Shown: positions 34,857 through 60,140, counted from the stretch's first letter. The stretch is DNA of 64,000 nucleotides from an uncultured Calditrichaceae bacterium (GCA_964387645.1 CAYLYM010000005.1:2508-66507); one strand, 5' to 3'. A program made the numbers and translations. Notes: generated by a model not told the origin, from the sequence alone.

Positions 34857-36044
<1,188 letters not shown>

Positions 36045-36212
36045 CTTTAACATAAGGGGCTAAATTCTGAAATATTTTTTATTTTCCTCATACATGGCGA
36101 TCGACGAACCAGAAAAAGATTTACTCCTCACTTCAATTCCATAGAAAATAAAAATTATTAACAAAAGGTACATTGTATTTGAATAATTGTCCCAATTTTA
36201 GAAGAGACTATT

Positions 36213-36573
36213 ATGTCACCTTCATCTGTTGAAATCTGTAAGGAAACAATCGTGCATATGGATTTAGTGGAAAAAGTCAAAAAAAGTTTACCTGGAAATG
36301 ATAAAATTCAGGCATTAGTATATACTTTTAAGATATTAGGCGATCCAACGCGATTATGAATTGTTTTGGCCCTGGCCAGGGGGAAATTATGTGTGTGATA
36401 TTGCCACATTAGTAAATTTGTCTGTTTCTGCCGTCTCACATCAACTTCGTCTGTTACGAAGTATGAAGCTGGTTAAATTCATAAAAGAGGGGAATATGGT
36501 TCATTATTCTTTGGATGATGAACATATCGAGAAAATTATTGGTGAGGCACAAAATCACGTAAGAGAAAAGTAA
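36213..36573 (+). pseudogene. ArsR/SmtB-family regulator carrying a nonsense codon and a 2-bp deletion
   Basis: MSPSS…ILGDPTRL, then TGA (36357-36359) where Arg is expected. The same frame continues IVLALARGKLCV. The (TG)4 run at 36390-36397 is 2 nt short of what is needed for …CVCDIA, shifting to the frame of the listed ORF 36361..36573 (…VCDIATLVNLSVSAVSHQLRLLR…). Confidence 0.6.
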
Positions 36574-36700
36574 AAATCTTTTACTTATTAACATTATGCC
36601 AGTCAGGAATCGAACAAAAAATCAGTTATTTTAACCAGTCATTTTAAAGTTTTCAATATAGACTGCACGGACTGATCAGTGCATATCAAAAGAGTTGTTA

Positions 36701-36747
36701 AAACAAATGCTCGGTTATGAATTGGTCGGGCATTTGTTTTTTTATCC
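36701..36747 (+). terminator. candidate terminator
   Basis: aaacaaatgc…gcatttgttt 10-bp stem with a large loop, followed by ttttttt. Confidence 0.3.
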
Positions 36748-36842
36748 CAAATTTTATGAATAACCTATTATTTCCTCACACAAAAAACTCATCTTTGGTA
36801 ATTGAAGGAAAAAAATTTTCTAAAAAGGTTTATAAAAAGTGC

Positions 36843-36895
36843 TTGACGAATTGAACTTATGTTCATTATATTGCGTAAAATGAACATAAGTTCAA
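36843..36895 (+). promoter_or_regulatory. sigma70-like promoter (-35 TTGACG 36843-36848, -10 TATATT 36867-36872) overlapped by a perfect 16-bp inverted-repeat operator
   Basis: TTGAACTTATGTTCAT (36851-36866), 13-nt spacer, ATGAACATAAGTTCAA (36880-36895). The -10 lies inside the spacer. RBS AAGGTGG and ATG of the DUF134 gene follow at 36911. Confidence 0.55.
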
Positions 36896-36910
36896 TATTG
36901 AAGGTGGATA

Positions 36911-37357
36911 ATGAGAGGGCCATATCGGAAAAGAATGATATTGCAGCCGCCGCAATTTAAAAATTTTAAACCTGGGGGAATACCAAGTCGGTTTTTAAAA
37001 TCCATTATTCTTACAGTGGATGAATATGAAGCAATACGACTGGCCGATCATCTTGGTCTTGAACACCAGGAAGCAGCAGAGCGAATGAAGATATCAAGAC
37101 CGACTTTTACCCGATTAATTGAACAAGCAAGGCAAAAAGTTGCCACAGCATTGGTAGAAGGAATGGAATTAATAATTGAAGGAGGTAATATATATTTTAT
37201 CAATACGTTAAGTCATTGTAAAGATTGTGGTGAAACTATTCCTCAACCATTTACTGAGGAAATTGATCAGTGTCCTGATTGTGGTTCAGAAAATGTTGAA
37301 AATTTAGCCTGGCAGTTTATAGGAAGAGGAAGAAAAGGTTATAGAAGGGGACGTTAA
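36911..37357 (+). CDS. DUF134 (UPF0251) predicted DNA-binding protein with C-terminal CxxC…CxxC zinc ribbon and RG-rich tail
   Basis: …LTVDEYEAIRLADHLGLEHQEAAERMKISRPTFTRLIEQARQKVA… (sigma-70 region-4-like HTH typical of DUF134); CKDCG…CPDCG; GRGRKGYRRGR tail. Confidence 0.65.
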   Translation: MRGPYRKRMILQPPQFKNFKPGGIPSRFLKSIILTVDEYEAIRLADHLGLEHQEAAERMKISRPTFTRLIEQARQKVATALVEGMELIIEGGNIYFINTLSHCKDCGETIPQPFTEEIDQCPDCGSENVENLAWQFIGRGRKGYRRGR

Positions 37358-37358
37358 G

Positions 37359-38216
37359 ATGAAAATCGCTGTTGCAAGTGGAAAAGGAGGAACGGGTAAA
37401 ACATTAGTAGCAACAAACTTTGCCTATTTTGTTTCTAAAGAGAATCCTGTAACGCTTTATGACCTGGATGTAGAGGAGCCTAATGCCGCTCTATTTTTCG
37501 ATGCTGAAAAGAAAGAAGTTAAATCCGTTCAAGTAATGATCCCCGTTGTGAATGAGAAAAAATGTGATCATTGTGGAGTTTGTAGCCGAATTTGCGAATA
37601 CCATGCAATTATAAACTTAGGAAATCAGGTTATGGTTTTTCCAGAATTATGCCATAGCTGTTATGGGTGTTTAGAATTATGTCCTCAAGGAGCTATTAGT
37701 GAGGGTAAAAAAGAAATTGGTACTATTCATACTGCAAAACATAATAATATAGAAATTGTTACAGGTGTTTTAAAAATTAGTGAATCTGCTACTCCAAAAT
37801 TAATTCGTGAGACAAAAAAAGAATTGTCAGATAAAAATTCAATTGAAATTTATGATTCACCACCTGGAACATCTTGTCCTGTAATAGAAGTAGTAAAAGA
37901 TGTAGATTATGTTTTAATAGTTGGTGAGCCGACTCCGTTTGGTTTGCATGATTTAGACTTATTGATGCGGGTTATAGAACAATTAAAAATACCATTTGGT
38001 GTATTAATTAATAAAGCCGATGAGCAGAATAACCTTATTAAACAGTATTGTATAGAAAAAAACGTAGAAATTATTGGGGAAATTCCTATGCGCCACGATA
38101 TAGCGTGTACTTATGCCAAAGGTAAGTTAATTATAGATGAAATTGATGATATGAGTTCACTATTCGAATCAATTTGGGATAAAATAATGCAAAAAGTTAA
38201 CGAGGCAGCTTTATGA
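37359..38216 (+). CDS. MinD/ParA-superfamily P-loop ATPase with inserted 2x[4Fe-4S] ferredoxin domain (COG1149-type)
   Basis: Deviant Walker A SGKGGTGKT; CDHCGVCSRIC…CHSCYGCLELC cysteine motifs. Confidence 0.75.
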   Translation: MKIAVASGKGGTGKTLVATNFAYFVSKENPVTLYDLDVEEPNAALFFDAEKKEVKSVQVMIPVVNEKKCDHCGVCSRICEYHAIINLGNQVMVFPELCHSCYGCLELCPQGAISEGKKEIGTIHTAKHNNIEIVTGVLKISESATPKLIRETKKELSDKNSIEIYDSPPGTSCPVIEVVKDVDYVLIVGEPTPFGLHDLDLLMRVIEQLKIPFGVLINKADEQNNLIKQYCIEKNVEIIGEIPMRHDIACTYAKGKLIIDEIDDMSSLFESIWDKIMQKVNEAAL

Positions 38217-39094
38217 AGGAAATTTTGCTTATAAGTGGGAAAGGTGGAACTGGCAAGACATCGATTTCTGCTGCACTGGGAGCGTTAGCCGGAAATAAAG
38301 CTGTTGTTGCCGACTGTGATGTGGATGCAGCCAATTTACATCTGCTTTATGAACCAGAAATAACTCGAGAAGAGAACTTTTATAGTGGTAAGGAACCAGT
38401 AATAGACCACAACTTGTGTACAAAATGTGGTTTATGTAAGGAAAAATGTCGATTTGATGCCATTTATCTGGAGGATGGACAATATAAAATTGATGAAGTG
38501 AGTTGTGAGGGGTGCTCGTTGTGTTTTCACATTTGTCCTATAGATGCTATTCGAATGGAAAAGAATTTGGCTGGAAAGTGGTATTGCGCAAAATCGCGTT
38601 TTGGGAATGATTTTTTATTTGCTCATTTGGGCATAGGTAAAGAAAATTCAGGGAAATTAGTAACAAAAGTCAAGCAAGAAGCTAAGCAGTTAGCTGATCA
38701 AAGGGGTATTTCATTTATTTTTGTGGATGGACCTCCGGGAATAGGTTGTCCAGTAATTTCGTCTTTAAGCAATGTTGATGTTGTTTTAATTGTAACAGAA
38801 GCAACACAATCAGGTTTGCATGATTTAGCAAGGTTGGTAGAATTAATAGAATATTTCAATCTTAAAGCTTTTTGTGTTATTAATAAAAGTGATTTAAATG
38901 AAGAAGTAACCAGAGAAATAAAAGAATTTTGTACAGACCATAATATTCAAATTATTACTGAAATACCATTTCATCCTGTGTTTTATGAAACTTTGCAAGA
39001 AGGGAAAACAGTAATTGAGAGTCAAAATTCAGAAATAATTGACAAAATAAGAAAAATTTTTAACGAGATGACAAAAGAGGAGAATGTGAAATGA
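38213..39094 (+). CDS. second COG1149-type MinD-like ATPase with ferredoxin domain (paralog)
   Basis: SGKGGTGKT; CTKCGLCKEKC…CEGCSLCFHIC. ATGA overlap with the upstream paralog. Confidence 0.75.
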   Translation: MKEILLISGKGGTGKTSISAALGALAGNKAVVADCDVDAANLHLLYEPEITREENFYSGKEPVIDHNLCTKCGLCKEKCRFDAIYLEDGQYKIDEVSCEGCSLCFHICPIDAIRMEKNLAGKWYCAKSRFGNDFLFAHLGIGKENSGKLVTKVKQEAKQLADQRGISFIFVDGPPGIGCPVISSLSNVDVVLIVTEATQSGLHDLARLVELIEYFNLKAFCVINKSDLNEEVTREIKEFCTDHNIQIITEIPFHPVFYETLQEGKTVIESQNSEIIDKIRKIFNEMTKEENVK

Positions 39095-39432
39095 AAGTTG
39101 CCATTACCACGCAAGCAGAAGGATGGGATGCAAAAATTGATCCTAGATTTGGTCGGGCGCGAGGATTTTGGATTATTGATACCGACACTGGGGAAGCTGA
39201 ATTTATAGACAACAATGAAAATTTTGAAGCTGCACATGGTGCTGGAACAAGCTCTGCGCAGAAAATGATCGAAAATAAAGTTAATGTATTGATTTCTGGA
39301 TCAGTTGGTCCAAAAGCAGGATCGGTACTCAAAGCAGCTGGGATTAAGATATATTTAACAAATGAAAATTTGACTGTTCGAGAAGCTTTTGATCGTTTTA
39401 AGAATAATAAATTAACTGAGATGTTAAATTAA
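39091..39432 (+). CDS. NifX/NifB-like (dinitrogenase FeMo-cofactor biosynthesis family) small cofactor-binding protein
   Basis: MKVAITTQAEGWDAKIDPRFGRARGFWIID…VNVLISGSVGPKA…GIKIY, the typical DUF/COG1433 pattern. ATGA overlap with the upstream gene. Confidence 0.65.
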   Translation: MKVAITTQAEGWDAKIDPRFGRARGFWIIDTDTGEAEFIDNNENFEAAHGAGTSSAQKMIENKVNVLISGSVGPKAGSVLKAAGIKIYLTNENLTVREAFDRFKNNKLTEMLN

Positions 39433-39449
39433 AAAAAGGAGGTGTCATC

Positions 39450-39824
39450 ATGCCAGGTGGTGATCGTACAGGACCTTTAGGTTTTGGTCCACTTACAGGA
39501 AGAGGTTTGGGTTATTGTGCGGGATATAATCATCCCGGTTATTATGTTCCTCCCGGTTGGGGCAGAGGTTTTGGTCGCGGCTGGGGTTGGGGTAGAGGAC
39601 GTGGATTTGGTTTTGGCCGAGGATTCTGGCGCTGGGGATGGCGTTGGACTGCTCCCATTCTTCCCGAACAATTAGACAAAATGCCGCCCGAATATCTGGT
39701 TGGATTAAAAGAAGAGTTACGCGGATTACGAACTACTGTTGATGATATGCTGCAAAGAATTGAAAATATGGAAAAAACCAGGGATAGCCATCAGGGTAAA
39801 GGTGAAACTACTGGTGGGGAATGA
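39450..39824 (+). CDS. DUF5320-like protein with Trp/Arg/Gly-rich low-complexity core
   Basis: N-terminus MPGGDRTGPLGFGPLTGRGLGYCAGY (the DUF5320 hallmark as I recall it); core GWGRGFGRGWGWGRGRGFGFGRGFWRWGWRW; C-terminal predicted helix. GGAGG RBS. Confidence 0.55.
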   Translation: MPGGDRTGPLGFGPLTGRGLGYCAGYNHPGYYVPPGWGRGFGRGWGWGRGRGFGFGRGFWRWGWRWTAPILPEQLDKMPPEYLVGLKEELRGLRTTVDDMLQRIENMEKTRDSHQGKGETTGGE

Positions 39825-39875
39825 TGTGAATTAATTAAAAAACTTTTAAAATTTGAGTAAAATGGAGGCTTAAAA

Positions 39876-40250
39876 ATGAAAATTGCTGTTGCTTCTGATG
39901 ATGGTGTTACAATTTCCGCGCACTTTGGTCGTACACGAGGTTTTGTGATTGCTGAAATTGAAGGTGACAAAATTGTCAATAAAGAATACCGGGAAAATAC
40001 GTTTACTGGTCATGCCCGGGGCTTAAATGTCACCGGGCATGACTTTAATGATCGTCATGGGCCAATTCTGGAAGCATTGAAAGATTGCAAGGTTGTTATA
40101 TCTCATGGAATGGGACGCCGAATTTATGAAGATTTAAGGGCTGCAGGTATTTCAGCCTTTATTGTTCAGGAAACAGATGTTGATCAAGCATTAAACCTGT
40201 ATCTTCAAAATTCTCTGGTTGATAGACCTGATAAAGGATGTGATCATTAA
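39876..40250 (+). CDS. second NifX/NifB-like cofactor-binding protein
   Basis: MKIAVASDDGVTISAHFGRTRGFVIAEIEGDKIV…; GGAGG RBS. Confidence 0.6.
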   Translation: MKIAVASDDGVTISAHFGRTRGFVIAEIEGDKIVNKEYRENTFTGHARGLNVTGHDFNDRHGPILEALKDCKVVISHGMGRRIYEDLRAAGISAFIVQETDVDQALNLYLQNSLVDRPDKGCDH

Positions 40251-40660
40251 CATAAGCGTGATAAAAGTACTAAAGATTAGAATTTCGGAAAAGGACAGAA
40301 TTCAGGTTGACAGATAAAATCCGATAAAATCCGGCGGAAGTAAGTGAACAATGAACGGGACTATATATGCATTTTCTGGAGGTTAGGTAATCTTATTGAA
40401 TAAGGTGAACTTTGTAAAATAAAAATCATCATAATACAGTGAAATGTTGACTTTTTAATGAAGCGAGAAAATCTAATGATCATAGTTAGATCTATTCTTG
40501 GTACAATTTGTAGGGGAGTAAAATAAATTAATCTTTTATTGAGAAACTTTTTCTGATTTTTGATAATCCGATTGTAAACAAATGAAAGTTCGGGTAAAAT
40601 CAAAGTTAAATTTCAAATATTAATTCTTTAAAAAATTTTAACTAATAAAGAAATAAAATT

Positions 40661-40861
40661 ATGTATGAAAAAAATCCGCAAAGAATGGGACCGGTTGGGC
40701 ATTGTATTTGTCCCAAATGTGGTTTTCGAATTTCACATAAACGTGGAGTCCCATGTCAAGACCAGAAATGTCCTCAATGTGGTGTGAAATTGATGCGAGA
40801 AGGTTCGTACCATCACAATTTGTTATTAGCAAAGAAAAAAAAGAAGAAGGAAAACTCTTGA
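40661..40861 (+). CDS. small zinc-ribbon protein (CxxC…CxxC) with poly-Lys tail
   Basis: GPVGHCICPKCG…CPQCG; Lys6 tail encoded by an A-rich tract. Confidence 0.4.
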   Translation: MYEKNPQRMGPVGHCICPKCGFRISHKRGVPCQDQKCPQCGVKLMREGSYHHNLLLAKKKKKKENS

Positions 40862-41053
40862 AAATTGAAATTAAGTTGAATTTTCTAAATGCTAATGTTT
40901 GGAGAATAAAATAAGTAAAGTACGGAAGCTTTTTAGTCCACAATCATTTTAATTGTTATTAATAAATGTGAAACACTTTATATGAGGGAATCAACAGGCT
41001 AATTTTTCTCTTGTACCTTAAATATTAGATTTTGAAATCAGGAAGTTCAATAT

Positions 41054-41704
41054 ATGATCAGTGCGACCATTGTATTTGATAATACGACTAAAAATAAGCA
41101 GTTAAAGGCAGATTGGGGATTTGCATGTGTTATTGAGTATCATGATAGGATGCTCCTATTTGATACTGGTGCTGATGGTAATATATTATTGAATAATATG
41201 AAAAAATTGAACATTAATCCACAAAGTATTCACTCAGTTTTCATATCGCACAACCATTTTGATCACATAGGTGGTCTCTCGCATTTTTTAAATGAAAATT
41301 CTGATGTGATACTCTACCTGCCTCAATCTTTAAGAGGAGTAACGCATGGACGAGAAATAATACATATTGATGACAATCCGCGAGAATTGGAAAAAGGAAT
41401 ATTTACAACTGGAGAATTAGAGGGCATTGAACAATCCCTCGTTATTTCCACATCAAAAGGAATGGTAATTTTTGTGGGATGCTCACATCCAGATATGAAT
41501 AAAATACTGAGTCGAGCTAAACAATTCGGAAAATTATTTGGCATTATTGGGGGACTACATGGTTTTAATCACTATAAATTGTTTCAGGATTTACAGTTAA
41601 TTTGTCCAACTCATTGTACAAAAAATAAACAGGTAATTAAAAATATTTATCCTGACAAGGTAATTGAGGGTGGGGTAGGTTTGCAAATAGTAATAAGTTC
41701 ATGA
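41054..41704 (+). CDS. MBL-fold metallo-hydrolase
   Basis: HNHFDHIGG (HxHxDH motif). Confidence 0.6.
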   Translation: MISATIVFDNTTKNKQLKADWGFACVIEYHDRMLLFDTGADGNILLNNMKKLNINPQSIHSVFISHNHFDHIGGLSHFLNENSDVILYLPQSLRGVTHGREIIHIDDNPRELEKGIFTTGELEGIEQSLVISTSKGMVIFVGCSHPDMNKILSRAKQFGKLFGIIGGLHGFNHYKLFQDLQLICPTHCTKNKQVIKNIYPDKVIEGGVGLQIVISS

Positions 41705-41759
41705 ACCGGATATAGAGGATAGAAAGACGAATAATAATAAAATTAAGTAGGAGAAAGTT

Positions 41760-43112
41760 ATGAAGACTGATGTGTTAGTAATTGGTGGTGGCCCTGGAGG
41801 CGTTATTTCTGCTATAGTTGGTAGAACTATTTATCCAGACAAAAAATTTATTTTGGTTCGAAAAGAACAGAAATCGATTGTACCCTGTGGTATACCTTAT
41901 GTTATTAATCGGTTAAAATCCGCCGAAGAAAATATTATGGGAGATGCTCCGCTAAAAGCTAAGGAAGTAGAAATAGTAATTGATGAAGTAATAAATGTTG
42001 ATCGAAAAAAAAAGGTGGCTCAATTAGCTAGTGGTAAGGAAATTGCCTTCCAGAAATTAGTTTTAGCAACAGGTAGTAAACCAGTTGTTCCGTCTTCAAT
42101 AAAAGGAATTGATTTAGAAAATATTTTCCCAATAAAAAAAGAACTAAACTATTTAAAACATTTAAGAGAACAAATTCACAATTTTAAAAATATTGTTATA
42201 GTTGGTGGTGGATTTATTGGAGTTGAATTTGCTGATGAAATAAGTAAACTTCCCAATAAAAATATTAGTATTATTGAGCTATCAGATCATCTTCTGGATC
42301 AATCTTTTGATGAAGAATTTAGTGAGAAAGTAGAAAATATTCTACGGAAAGAAAAAGTTAATATTTATACTCAGAGTCAGGTTGGTGGTTTTAAGGGAAA
42401 TAAGAAAGTTGAATATGTTTTATTGAATAATGGCAAAGAAATCCCTGCTGATGTTGTAATTTTATCTATTGGTTCCAGACCTAATACGGACTTAGCTGAA
42501 GAAATTGGATTAGATGTTTCTCCTTTAGGAGGAATTAAAGTAGATGAATTTATGAAAACCAGTGATTCAGACATTTTTGCCGTTGGTGACTGTGTAGAAA
42601 AGCGTTGTTTCTTTTGTCGAAAGCATATAGATGTCATGTTAGCTTCAACTGCTACTGCTGAGGCCCGATCGGCTGGTGCCAATCTGTTTCATTTAAAAAT
42701 AATAGAAATGAACAAAGGAACCATCGGAATATATTCTACTAAAGTGGGTGATTTGGCGCTGGCTACGGCCGGGCATACCGAGAAGAAAGCTATCGAAGAG
42801 GGATATGAAATTGTTACTGGTATATCTAAAGGTATTGATCGACATCCTGGTACCCTTCCAGATAAGCATGAGTTATATGTAAAACTGATATTTTCAAAAT
42901 ATTCTGGTATTATTATGGGTGCCCAAATCTATGGAGCCGATTCAGTAGGTGAGTTAATTAATACAATTGGGTTGGCTATACAAAATAAATTGACTATAAC
43001 AGATATTGCGACCATACAATATGGTACGCATCCTTTGCTAACTTCAGCACCAACTACTTATCCATTGATTGCTTGTGCTCTGGATGCTTTTAAAAAAATC
43101 CATGAATTTTAG
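41760..43112 (+). CDS. FAD-dependent pyridine-nucleotide-disulfide oxidoreductase (CoA-disulfide reductase/NADH oxidase family)
   Basis: VLVIGGGPGG FAD motif; single redox Cys in SIVPCGIPY (aligned with SFANCALPY of CoADR/Nox); second Rossmann IVIVGGGFIGVE. Confidence 0.7.
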   Translation: MKTDVLVIGGGPGGVISAIVGRTIYPDKKFILVRKEQKSIVPCGIPYVINRLKSAEENIMGDAPLKAKEVEIVIDEVINVDRKKKVAQLASGKEIAFQKLVLATGSKPVVPSSIKGIDLENIFPIKKELNYLKHLREQIHNFKNIVIVGGGFIGVEFADEISKLPNKNISIIELSDHLLDQSFDEEFSEKVENILRKEKVNIYTQSQVGGFKGNKKVEYVLLNNGKEIPADVVILSIGSRPNTDLAEEIGLDVSPLGGIKVDEFMKTSDSDIFAVGDCVEKRCFFCRKHIDVMLASTATAEARSAGANLFHLKIIEMNKGTIGIYSTKVGDLALATAGHTEKKAIEEGYEIVTGISKGIDRHPGTLPDKHELYVKLIFSKYSGIIMGAQIYGADSVGELINTIGLAIQNKLTITDIATIQYGTHPLLTSAPTTYPLIACALDAFKKIHEF

Positions 43113-43224
43113 ATAAAATATATGAAGATTAATGATAATAACTTTTAACTAAAAGTGGATTCGTTAATAATATTTGTTGAAATATCACAAAATTTGTATT
43201 TCATCTGTGCGGAGGTTGCTAACT

Positions 43225-43683
43225 ATGTTTAATAAAGCTCGATTAAAAATATATCCTGATTCCGTTCTAAGAGAAAAATCATTTCCTGTTTTCGATTTTG
43301 ATAAGAATTTGCAATCCCTAATAAATGCAATGCGAAGGATTATGTATGAACACAAAGGTATTGGTTTGGCAGCTCCACAGATTGGAATTCTAAAACAAGT
43401 TATTATTGCGGATGTTGGCAATGGGCTCCTTACTCTTGTTAACCCAACTATATTAGAAAGAAAAGGTGAAGAAATATTAACAGAAGGTTGTTTAAGTTTA
43501 CCTGGAATCGGAGTTGACGTACCGAGAAGCACACGTCTTGCTATTAGTGGTTTTGATCAATCAGGAAAAGCAATTGAAATGGAGTTAAGTGGTCTCATGG
43601 CACGTGTAGTCCAACACGAAATTGACCATTTAAATGGAGTACTAATTATTGATTATCAGGAGAATAAAAAAGAAGTGGTTTAG
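43225..43683 (+). CDS. def: peptide deformylase
   Basis: GIGLAAPQIG, EGCLSLPG, QHEIDHLNG motifs. GGAGG at 43211-43215 then ATG at 43225; the upstream extension of the listed ORF is rejected. Confidence 0.85.
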   Translation: MFNKARLKIYPDSVLREKSFPVFDFDKNLQSLINAMRRIMYEHKGIGLAAPQIGILKQVIIADVGNGLLTLVNPTILERKGEEILTEGCLSLPGIGVDVPRSTRLAISGFDQSGKAIEMELSGLMARVVQHEIDHLNGVLIIDYQENKKEVV

Positions 43684-43699
43684 AAAAGGAGAATAAGAA

Positions 43700-44518
43700 A
43701 TGAATACTCAAAATAGTAAAGTTCATACTCAAAATGAAGAAGATATGAAAATCTCAGAAAATCTTTCAAGAATAAAACATCGCATTGTAGTATTTAGTGG
43801 GAAAGGTGGGGTTGGCAAAACCACTGTGAGTGTTAATCTTGCTTTTGGATTTCAACAAAAAGGGCATAAAACAGGACTTTTAGACGCAGATATCACTGGA
43901 CCAAACATATCCAAAATGTTAGGATTGAGTGGAAACATTCAGGTTATTGATAACAAATTGATCCCACTTATCCGAAACGAATTAAAAGTGATTTCCATAG
44001 CAAACATTATCGAGAATAACCAACCTGTGATTTGGAGAGGTCCATTGAGGTCGAAATTATTGAATCAATTTTTAGGAGATGTATTGTGGGGAGAGCTGGA
44101 TTTTCTTGTTGCAGATTTACCGCCGGGCACAGGGGATGAAATTCTAACAATGACACAGAAAATGCAACCTGATATGGCTATCATTGTTACTACACCTCAG
44201 GAGGTTTCTTTAATTGATTCAGCAAGAGCTATTAATATGGCAAAAAAAATGAATATTAAAAAAATAGGTCTAATCGAAAATATGTCTGGTTTAATATGTC
44301 CAAAATGTGGAGAAAATATTGAAATATTTGGTTCAGGAGGTGGCAAAAAACAGTCTGAAGAAATGGGTATTGAATTTTTAGGTACTCTTCCTCTTGATCT
44401 TAAAACAAGAAAATTGGCTGATCAGGGGCAACCAATTCTTCTTGCCGATGCGCAGGCAGGTATATCCATTTTATTTAAACAAATTGTTGATAAAATCATG
44501 ACAGTGATTATGCAATGA
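43700..44518 (+). CDS. apbC: Mrp/NBP35/ApbC-family Fe-S cluster carrier ATPase
   Basis: FSGKGGVGKTT deviant Walker A; CPKCG motif. Confidence 0.8.
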   Translation: MNTQNSKVHTQNEEDMKISENLSRIKHRIVVFSGKGGVGKTTVSVNLAFGFQQKGHKTGLLDADITGPNISKMLGLSGNIQVIDNKLIPLIRNELKVISIANIIENNQPVIWRGPLRSKLLNQFLGDVLWGELDFLVADLPPGTGDEILTMTQKMQPDMAIIVTTPQEVSLIDSARAINMAKKMNIKKIGLIENMSGLICPKCGENIEIFGSGGGKKQSEEMGIEFLGTLPLDLKTRKLADQGQPILLADAQAGISILFKQIVDKIMTVIMQ

Positions 44519-44664
44519 AGATTTCATTAAATTTAAACTCATGTATTATAAATAACTAGATTTTATAAAAATAATATAGGATATTTTGTTTAATTCATAT
44601 TAAGAATTTTTTTAAAAATTTTTTAAAAAAACACCAATTAAATCAAATTAAGATATATTTAATA

Positions 44665-45480
44665 ATGGTCATTAATATTGACAGTTGTGATTTGAATTAT
44701 ATTAAAAAATGGTTTTTTTCTTATGTGAAATCATTTAAATCTGGTGATAAGAGTCAATTGCATAATATCTTTTTAAAAGAAGAACATACAAAGCGTGTTT
44801 GTAAAGAAATTATAGAAATTGGTAATCAATTAAATTTAAATGAAAAAGAAATAATTTTAAGTGAAATTATTGCCCTTTTACATGATGTTGGCCGCTTCGA
44901 ACAGTACTGGCTTTACAAAACTTTCTCTGATAGTCGGTCAGTTGATCATGTAGAGCTAGGAATAAAAATATTAAAGAAATATAATGTGTTAGAGAATATA
45001 GATTATGATCTACAAAAACTTATTTTTAAAACAATTGGTTATCATAATCGTGCAATTCTACCACAAAATGAGACAGAAACCTGTCTGTTTTTTTCGAAAT
45101 TACTTCGTGATGCCGATAAGCTGGATATTTTAAGAGTTGTCACGGAATATTATTATAAAAAGAATGGAGATAAGAATGATGCGATTGTATTGGATTTACC
45201 TAATACTCCCGAAGTTTCTGAAAACGTTTACAATGATTTAATGAATAAAAAGATCGTTGATATCAAACATGTGAAAAATCAAAATGATTTTAAACTACTT
45301 CAAGCCGGGTGGATTTTTGACATAAATTTTCTTCCTACCTTTCAACGTATTAAAGAAAGACATTATTTAGAAATGATTAAAAATGCTTTACCTAAATCTA
45401 AAAGGATTGAGGAAATTTTTATTTTGATTAATTCCCATCTAAATGACTCTTTAAAAAATTTAAATATTATGGTAAAATAG
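44665..45480 (+). CDS. HD-domain phosphohydrolase
   Basis: …LLHDVGRF… HD motif. Confidence 0.55.
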   Translation: MVINIDSCDLNYIKKWFFSYVKSFKSGDKSQLHNIFLKEEHTKRVCKEIIEIGNQLNLNEKEIILSEIIALLHDVGRFEQYWLYKTFSDSRSVDHVELGIKILKKYNVLENIDYDLQKLIFKTIGYHNRAILPQNETETCLFFSKLLRDADKLDILRVVTEYYYKKNGDKNDAIVLDLPNTPEVSENVYNDLMNKKIVDIKHVKNQNDFKLLQAGWIFDINFLPTFQRIKERHYLEMIKNALPKSKRIEEIFILINSHLNDSLKNLNIMVK

Positions 45481-59912: not shown

Positions 59913-60140
59913 ATGAAGATACTAGCAGAAATTCCAGTACAAAAAAAGGTAAGAATTGTAGATATTTTTGGTGGCAGAAATGCCAGGCAGACTCTTGCCC
60001 AGATGGGAATCGGTGTTGGAAGCCAAGTGATTGTTAGGAGAAATGCACCTTTTTCTGGGCCCATATTAGTGGAAAATCATGGAACTACGGTTGCAATAGG
60101 AAGAGGTCTGGCTTCAAAAATTATGGTTGAGGAAATATGA
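59913..60140 (+). CDS. feoA: ferrous iron transport protein A
   Basis: SH3-like FeoA pattern (…VRIVDIFGGRNARQTLAQMGIGVGSQVIVRRNAPFSGPILVE…); internal ATG chosen; ATGA overlap with feoB. Confidence 0.7.
   Translation: MKILAEIPVQKKVRIVDIFGGRNARQTLAQMGIGVGSQVIVRRNAPFSGPILVENHGTTVAIGRGLASKIMVEEI

Follow-up and report, generated by a model that had tools for sequence, protein, structure and literature searches.

The seven-gene region at positions 36911-40861 of a 64,000-nucleotide (nt) stretch of DNA from an uncultured Calditrichaceae bacterium (GCA_964387645.1 CAYLYM010000005.1:2508-66507; hereafter the window, to which all coordinates refer) can be interpreted, with a probability of roughly 80 %, as an orange protein (ORP)-type gene cluster (orp) that belongs to an uncultured member of the Calditrichota and makes use of a DUF134 regulator. 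An earlier note on this DNA had labelled the region an uncharacterised system, and had considered none of the core proteins to have an assigned biochemical function. Neither statement holds, as the cluster appears to be the Calditrichota version of the ORP gene cluster known from Desulfovibrio, the fourth gene (g4) codes for a homologue of the crystallised, Mo-Cu-S-binding orange protein, and ATPases of the Orp3/Orp4 types have been purified with Fe-S clusters and loaded by MrpORP in vitro. Fievet et al. (2011) reportedly described the cluster as an anaerobe-specific ORP complex. The theme of metal-sulfur cluster handling that the earlier note had proposed is consistent with the biochemistry of the homologous Desulfovibrio ORP proteins (PMC6345978). 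The genes of the cluster and the associated Fe-S carrier gene are as follows:

36911..37357, + strand: g1, DUF134 helix-turn-helix protein with a C-terminal FmdB-like CxxC...CxxC ribbon (PF02001)
37359..38216, + strand: g2, MinD/Mrp-like P-loop ATPase 'A' with a 2x[4Fe-4S] insert, Orp3/Orp4 type (Pfam)
38213..39094, + strand: g3, paralogous ATPase 'B', Orp3/Orp4 type (Pfam)
39091..39432, + strand: g4, single-domain NifX-fold homologue of the orange protein, Orp8 (Nitro_FeMo-Co, 76 bits)
39450..39824, + strand: g5, DUF5320 protein: N-terminal MPxGDxTGP motif, then a stretch rich in Gly, Arg and aromatic residues, then a coiled coil at the C-terminus (PF17253)
39876..40250, + strand: g6, second NifX-fold (Di-Nase) protein with a GCDH C-terminus (PF02579, 61 bits)
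40661..40861, + strand: g7, Cys6His protein, C-x-C-x2-C-x5-H-x5-C-x4-C-x2-C, in no Pfam or NCBIfam family
43700..44518, + strand: Mrp/NBP35-type Fe-S carrier with a CPKC motif, for which MrpORP is the best model, matched by its N-terminal domain only

All seven open reading frames (ORFs) are present on the + strand where the earlier note had placed them, and a check against the Pfam hidden Markov models (HMMs) confirmed the proposed DUF134, CbiA/ParA with Fer4, Nitro_FeMo-Co and DUF5320 memberships. The same locus is present in an independent Joint Genome Institute (JGI) assembly (L001), and the nearest named relative of g3 is found in Caldithrix abyssi (68 % identity). ATGA overlaps occur at g2/g3 and g3/g4, a single nucleotide lies between g1 and g2, and gaps of 17 and 51 nt separate g4 from g5 and g5 from g6, respectively. 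The tight packing ascribed to the cluster is thus retained for g1-g6, but not for g7, which is set apart by a 410-nt spacer.

The ORP complex of Desulfovibrio vulgaris Hildenborough includes two ATPases with two [4Fe-4S] ferredoxin motifs each (Orp3 and Orp4), a small protein (Orp5) whose homologue Dde_3197 binds a [2Fe-2S] cluster, the orange protein (Orp8) with its non-covalently bound S2MoS2CuS2MoS2 cluster, and MrpORP (Orp9), in which a Mrp/NBP35 domain with a CXXC motif is fused to a NifX-fold Di-Nase domain (PMC6345978). Orp3, Orp4 and Orp8 co-purify, and MrpORP passes [4Fe-4S] clusters to Orp3 and Orp4 in vitro (PMC6345978). The window cluster resembles this complex in its paired MinD-like ATPases with two [4Fe-4S] motifs each (g2/g3), a cysteine-free Nitro_FeMo-Co protein (g4), a further Di-Nase protein (g6), a Mrp/NBP35 carrier best matching MrpORP, a small Cys-rich protein (g7, a candidate for the Orp5 counterpart) and its confinement to anaerobe lineages. 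In a PDB sequence search the g4 protein, with a length of 113 amino acids (aa) and lacking both Cys residues and a tail, matched the orange protein of Desulfovibrio gigas (2WFB) with 44 % identity over 107 aa (expect value, E, 1.5e-25). Furthermore, proteins sharing 68-75 % identity with the D. gigas ORP sit in clusters like that of the window. Two of these loci (L085/L086) share the order DUF134 - G/R-rich protein - ORP - ATPase - ATPase - NifX - small Cys protein, and a third (L087) has the same order minus DUF134. The occurrence of close ORP relatives in like clusters therefore ties the window architecture to bona fide orange proteins. The two systems differ in that Desulfovibrio has two divergent operons rather than the single co-directional operon found here, a fused MrpORP rather than g6 and a distant Mrp, and in the DUF5320 gene which is present here. 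The D. vulgaris complex has been purified and carries Fe-S and Mo-Cu-S clusters.

The proposal that these genes belong together was followed up in 80 loci, which were recovered by means of an ATPase-alignment scan with one genome per species and represent ~27 phylum-level groups, five of them archaeal. Six-frame ORFs of these loci were annotated by iterated HMM searches that started from the proteins of the window, and neighbours were counted when located on the same strand and within 5 kb of the anchor ATPase. The same families recur across these phyla, with a second ATPase in 70/80, an ORP-like gene in 65/80, a g6-like gene in 48/80 and any NifX-fold gene in 71/80 loci. Further neighbours include g7-like genes (40/80, or 30/80 by strict motif, the latter count being given because the iterated g7 HMM partly took in FmdB-type ribbons), DUF5320 (34/80), Mrp (32/80), DUF134 (28/80), MBL (14/80) and CoA-disulfide-reductase (CoADR)-like genes (9/80). 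The control families hrcA, HD and dnaJ, of which the first two are neighbours in the window that have no relation to the cluster, were counted in 0/80, 0/80 and 4/80 loci, respectively, and the grouping of the cluster genes is far beyond chance.

The components are also joined in a range of gene fusions. ORP domains are fused through a G/R-rich linker to a DUF5320 coiled coil in twelve loci, five of these ORP-DUF5320 fusions being detected with g5 alone as query (E 4e-11 to 2e-7), and the ORP-DUF5320-NifX2 triple fusions in L052 and L082 match the g4-g5-g6 gene order. Other combinations are ORP with a g7 domain (L014), NifX2 with ORP (L024 and L031), DUF134 with a ribbon and a g7 domain (L016, L044, L074 and P0274), and an ORP-like domain with a G/R-rich tail alone (L070, L073 and L078). 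These fusions indirectly support a physical association of the components, and together with the conserved neighbourhood they bear out the idea of one functional unit. A separate set of giant proteins (772-1430 aa; P0267, P0268, P0269, P0270 and P0273 in the P0267-P0273 range) carries two N-terminal PDZ domains, one to three Nitro_FeMo-Co domains and three to five tandem g7-type Cys6His domains; no description of this PDZ-NifX-g7 architecture was found in the literature searched.

The two ATPases match CbiA with 69 (g2) and 50 bits (g3), and each additionally matches ParA/NUBPL and contains two Fer4 motifs. Their ferredoxin domain is inserted at residues ~60-120, and all eight ferredoxin Cys residues were invariant in the ATPase comparison. 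The g2 and g3 proteins are 33 % identical, where 41 % similarity has been reported for Orp3 and Orp4 (PMC6345978). The order of paralogue A followed by paralogue B is found in 72/72 adjacent pairs, which speaks for an obligate pair that arose by an ancient duplication. Among the closest known systems are the SIMIBI ATPases (Mrp/NBP35/ApbC, NifH, CooC and the HypB-partner Mrp), which dimerise and handle metal clusters; from these, g2 and g3 differ in a full 2x[4Fe-4S] insert after switch I and in lacking a CXXC motif as a bridge. For the ferredoxin-inserted subfamily, no solved structure was found. It may be inferred that the ATPases serve as scaffold or insertase, as the earlier note had put forward, although their published role is that of Fe-S recipients, not donors. 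An additional Cys residue, over and above the eight of the ferredoxin domain, is conserved after the Walker B motif in both paralogues and in no fewer than 90 % of the 47 ATPases compared. In g3 this is Cys179 (38747-38749), in a DxPPGxGCP segment just past Walker B, with the g2 equivalent located in DSPPGTSCP, and it could represent a metal or cluster site at the dimer interface.

In comparisons with the NCBIfam models MrpORP came up repeatedly. The g6 protein shares just 25 % identity with 2WFB, and aligns to positions 265-365 of the MrpORP model. Its GCDH terminus may be set beside CDH, the reported end motif of the MrpORP Di-Nase domain (PMC6345978), and by its sequence g6 would resemble the MrpORP C-terminal domain, or Orp7. 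The Mrp protein matches the MrpORP model (NF041136) with 310 bits over positions 1-250 of 365 (cut-off 450). Situated 3.4 kb apart and unfused, g6 and Mrp thus look like the putative halves of a split MrpORP (Orp9).

The DUF5320 model is matched by residues 1-106 of g5 (77.6 bits; Pfam cut-off 27). Residues 20-70 of this protein are rich in Gly (0.31), R/K (0.14) and aromatic residues (FWY, 0.29), and contain no D/E. The GC skew of the window peaks (0.30) at 38001-40000, which coincides with the G-rich codons of this Gly/Arg-rich segment. Separately, an N-terminal motif, MPxGDxTGP(x)GxGPxTGRG, begins g5 (39450-39476) and also occurs in ORFs of L017, L020, L026, L059, L060, L061 and others. In the 80 loci it is common to DUF5320 (24 ORFs) and g7-type (11 ORFs) proteins and is found in no other ORF, while the g7 of the window itself is devoid of an MPxGDxTGP-type motif. 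The motif may constitute a docking peptide. Whole-word literature searches for DUF134 and DUF5320 found no functional study; proteins of both families appear in a list of archaeal proteins whose RG-rich motifs are putative quadruplex binders (PMC7565180).

The g7 family comprises 1358 representatives (E <= 1e-3), in which C15, C17, C20, H26, P31, C32, C37, C40 and R46 are invariant, and its six Cys and one His ligands exceed the needs of a four-Cys ribbon. A predicted model (predicted local distance difference test, pLDDT, 76) gave generic rubredoxin/zinc-ribbon matches, none of them significant. The g7-type proteins of other phyla usually start with MPRGDGTGP...GRG, and a homologue search with a Desulfobacterales g7-type protein gave 26 matches. 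In Desulfobacterales loci the g7-type genes are located directly upstream of the ATPases, as in the DVU2105-2103 order, and g7 is a candidate Orp5 counterpart. A second small Cys protein, an FmdB-type zinc ribbon with a CCG...CAGPG.CCGK tail, is encoded in Desulfobacterota-type orp loci (L085 10669-10917, L087 10651-10905, L070 4037-4291 and L083 8787-9056), and its ribbon resembles the C-terminal ribbon of g1. The spacer between g6 and g7 (40251-40660) comprises 410 nt of AT-rich, non-coding DNA with a promoter-like site at 40539-40567, its sole ORF (40361-40603, minus strand) being spurious-looking. Given this spacer and its own promoter-like site, g7 probably forms a separate transcription unit. 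An Rfam scan of 35900-45000 produced zero matches, and thus nothing that would explain the spacer.

Three predicted regulatory features are located upstream of g1:

36843..36872, + strand: sigma-70-like promoter TTGACG-18-TATATT of the g1-g6 operon, by predicted function (consensus scan, 10/12)
36852..36865, no strand assigned: operator site 1, TGAACTTATGTTCA, between the -35 and -10 boxes, an exact TGAAC-N4-GTTCA
36881..36894, no strand assigned: operator site 2, TGAACATAAGTTCA, at about the position where transcription is predicted to start

The two operator sites resolve from a 21-nt inverted repeat, and are the only exact copies of TGAAC-N4-GTTCA in the 64 kb of the window. Such sites overlapping a promoter would represent a typical repressor layout. 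The motif recurs in eleven other loci, where it precedes DUF134 or the first gene of the cluster, with paired sites 26-34 nt apart in L005 and L074, and the operator/-10 box junction GTTCATTATATT is shared with L005, L018, L064 and L068. Across the 80 loci (1.14 Mb) fourteen exact sites were observed, compared to 1.04 expected from 100 first-order Markov simulations, which produced a maximum of three sites. Each of the fourteen precedes a core cluster gene (DUF134 in eleven cases, the first ATPase or ORP in the others). They are spread over seven phylum-level groups, among them the Calditrichota, Marinimicrobia, Bacteroidota, Planctomycetota, Campylobacterota and Cloacimonadota, and a site is likewise present in the ORP-relative loci L085/L086. 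When up to one mismatch is permitted, a site falls between -200 and +60 at 11/33 DUF134 genes, the background rate being 0.01 per 260 nt. The DUF134 genes of Dehalococcoidia and some other groups are without the exact motif, and may use a variant. No further copies (<=3 mismatches) above chance were found in the window, and none before g7, MBL, CoADR or Mrp, so that these genes are not assignable to the g1 regulon. The g1 protein matches DUF134 over residues 4-94 (84 bits; Pfam cut-off 27), and its C-terminal zinc ribbon weakly matches TIGR02605 (E 6e-4). The suggestion that the DUF134 protein is the regulator acting at the upstream palindrome is hence backed by phylogenetic footprinting across phyla, with binding predicted from sequence, and g1 is the probable autoregulator of the operon.

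On the basis of these comparisons, a mechanism may be proposed in which g1 would bind the two TGAAC-N4-GTTCA sites overlapping its own sigma-70-type promoter and thereby control g1-g6, and Mrp would mature the ferredoxin domains of a g2-g3 heterodimer, on which the NifX-fold proteins g4 and g6 would dock. The g5 protein could serve as a Gly/Arg/aromatic-rich coiled-coil adaptor or wrapper, and g7, with its Cys6His motif, as a module for a metal or cluster, possibly also serving the regulator. The binding and hydrolysis of ATP, along with low-potential ferredoxin electrons, would drive the steps by which an anionic inorganic metal-sulfide species on the NifX-fold domains is assembled, held or released. 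Parts of this scheme have been shown in homologues, namely Fe-S clusters on the ATPases, their delivery by the Mrp domain and the co-purification of components. NifX-fold proteins have likewise been shown to hold anionic metal-sulfide clusters without covalent bonds.

Several observations weigh against the assignment to the orp type. The most evident is the mode of control, as expression of the Desulfovibrio orp genes needs sigma-54, OrpR and IHF (PMC8359166), whereas a sigma-70-like promoter, DUF134 and the TGAAC-N4-GTTCA operator are predicted here; no TGGCAC-N5-TTGC-like sigma-54 promoter was found upstream of g1 or g7, nor an OrpR-type Sigma54_activat protein among the large ORFs of the window. 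The correspondence to Orp3/4/5/7 is drawn from domain architecture and the loci of close ORP relatives, not from alignment to DVU2103-2109, and for Orp5 there are two contenders, since the published Orp5/Dde_3197 could correspond to either the FmdB-type protein or the g7 type. It is not certain that Mrp is dedicated to the cluster, given its missing Di-Nase domain, its match to the MrpORP model below the cut-off, and the MBL, CoADR-like and def genes lying in between. Finally, MinD, the Mrp-type metallochaperones and NifH are equally near to the ATPases in fold, so that the fold does not define the ATP-driven step. As a separate observation, among the sigma-54-like -24/-12 matches of the window the best one, TGGAACTACGGTTGCA (60080-60095, + strand, 1 mismatch), sits 42 nt upstream of a gene for a FeoB ferrous-iron transporter (60137); it is a lone match and possibly due to chance.

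Among the alternative interpretations, all of them unlikely, an Fe-S store like IssA is the most probable, and is compatible with the orp-type assignment, which it would refine. According to this possibility, g4 and g5 would represent a split IssA, and the Fe-S ATPases would load or mobilise an anionic thioferrate-like polymer. IssA (SipA) of Pyrococcus furiosus is described as a NifX-fold protein (IPR003731) which stores Fe and S as anionic thioferrate, with a Gly/cationic/aromatic tail proposed to wrap this material (PMC5524996). The composition of g5 residues 20-70, free of D/E, matches that of the IssA tail, and the many fusions of ORP-like domains to a G/R-rich tail or to DUF5320 point in the same direction. 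Furthermore, g4 matches MTH1175 (E 2.5e-10), which a cladogram in the IssA paper marks as the IssA homologue of M. thermautotrophicus (PMC5524996). In both systems a NifX-fold domain would work together with a segment that is rich in Gly, Arg and aromatic residues and free of acidic ones, and for both the handling of anionic inorganic Fe-S material has been proposed. However, the tail of IssA lies within one polypeptide with its IPR003731 domain, an arrangement absent from g4 and found in the fused forms of other loci, while g5 is a separate protein here, with an N-terminal motif and a coiled coil. In addition, g4 is closest to the orange protein, a binder of a discrete Mo-Cu-S cluster and not of a polymer. 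The likeness is one of composition, and for low-complexity segments such likeness is weak evidence. No ATPase partner of IssA is described in the searchable text of that paper, in which neither ATPase nor SipB occurs (PMC5524996).

A more general form of this idea, which we put forward as an unlikely speculation, is that orp clusters of the DUF134 type constitute a widespread, ATP- and redox-driven system for the storage or mobilisation of an anionic inorganic metal-sulfide material, either thioferrate-like Fe-S or thiometallate. The NifX-fold domains would nucleate the material, and detachable Gly/Arg/aromatic segments of DUF5320 would wrap it, as has been proposed for the IssA tail. The Cys6His module of g7, which is fused to DUF134 in Bacteroidota, would inform the DUF134 repressor of the state of the cluster, and the ferredoxin-ATPase pair would power loading or release. 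If true, this would represent a general anaerobe counterpart of ferritin-type storage, equipped with its own regulator and operator.

It is very unlikely that the cluster encodes a MinD-like positioning or division system, with the ATPases as spatial regulators of the septum, a role put forward for D. vulgaris, and the metal clusters as redox sensors. Loss of orp expression does lead to morphological defects, and MrpORP is polar (PMC8359166, PMC6345978). However, the authors call the role of the ORP complex 'still unclear' and propose a cell-division link that is perhaps indirect (PMC8359166), the matches to the MinD models TIGR01968/TIGR01969 (30-56 bits, including 30-43 bits where the cut-off is 213) fall far below the cut-offs of 202-213, a ferredoxin domain is inserted that a septum-site MinD would lack, and the constant partners are NifX-fold, Mrp and Cys-rich modules and no division proteins. 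The maturation of a nitrogenase-type cofactor, with the NifX-like proteins carrying FeMo-co precursors for an enzyme encoded elsewhere, is highly improbable, since the Nitro_FeMo-Co matches of g4 and g6, the PF02579 fold and the non-covalent binding of metal-sulfur clusters shared with NifX, NafY and the NifB C-terminal domain are accompanied by nifX (TIGR02663; 20 and 31 bits) and nifB (TIGR01290; 18 and 34 bits) scores far under the cut-offs of 112 and 344, respectively, there is no nitrogenase context, and no nitrogenase component occurs among the families tracked in the 80 loci, which were not screened for nif. The partners that recur there are the ATPase pair, Mrp and small Cys proteins. 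The absence of nitrogenase from the window had already been remarked on in the earlier note, and scans of the full 64 kb found zero nif genes and no other Mo/W-enzyme families.

Downstream of the orp-type cluster, Pfam and NCBIfam support the MBL, CoADR-like, def and Mrp/ApbC genes that the earlier note had listed, among which the following two precede def:

41054..41704, + strand: MBL-fold hydrolase, a recurrent accessory neighbour (Pfam)
41760..43112, + strand: single-Cys CoA-disulfide-reductase-like flavoprotein, of weak and heterogeneous association (Pfam, NCBIfam)

The g7-MBL pair is also found in the Calditrichaceae locus L005. CoADR-like neighbours were considered as a link to sulfur supply, and this was dropped, as of the five long ones three are of the Old Yellow Enzyme (OYE) type and two are CoADR-rhodanese fusions. 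The pair formed by def (peptide deformylase) and Mrp (43174-44518) is an odd adjacency that recurs in three loci of Bacteroidota (L044 11805-13151, L056 10305-11744 and L068 11827-13184), where it follows the ATPase pair directly on its downstream side. Just upstream of the cluster, an ArsR/SmtB-like gene (36213-36573, + strand) is an apparent pseudogene, interrupted by a TGA in frame behind GDPTRL and shifted in frame within the TGTGTGTG run. Its remainder is a normal ArsR helix-turn-helix, CDIATLVNLSVSAVSHQLRLL, and the lesions are identical in the independent JGI assembly (L001). Recoding of the TGA codon is unlikely, because neighbouring genes stop on TGA.

The ORP cluster is among the most widely conserved anaerobe-specific gene sets, extending here over ~27 phyla including archaea. 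While the window adds no new kind of system, it shows that the sigma-54 design of Desulfovibrio is not the sole one, as the DUF134-regulated form is found in 28/80 loci spread over many phyla. Bacteroidales, Methanosarcinales and relatives of Caldithrix are among the groups that possess this type of cluster. The operator, the membership of DUF5320 and the Cys6His family, and the IssA link were not found in the open literature searched, the 2011 founding paper lying outside it. Three handles on this machinery are thereby provided: a predicted DNA site, TGAAC-N4-GTTCA, for the DUF134 family, gene fusions which place DUF5320 and an unmodelled Cys6His family in the ORP machinery, and a possible chemical link between DUF5320 and the Fe-S storage tail of IssA.

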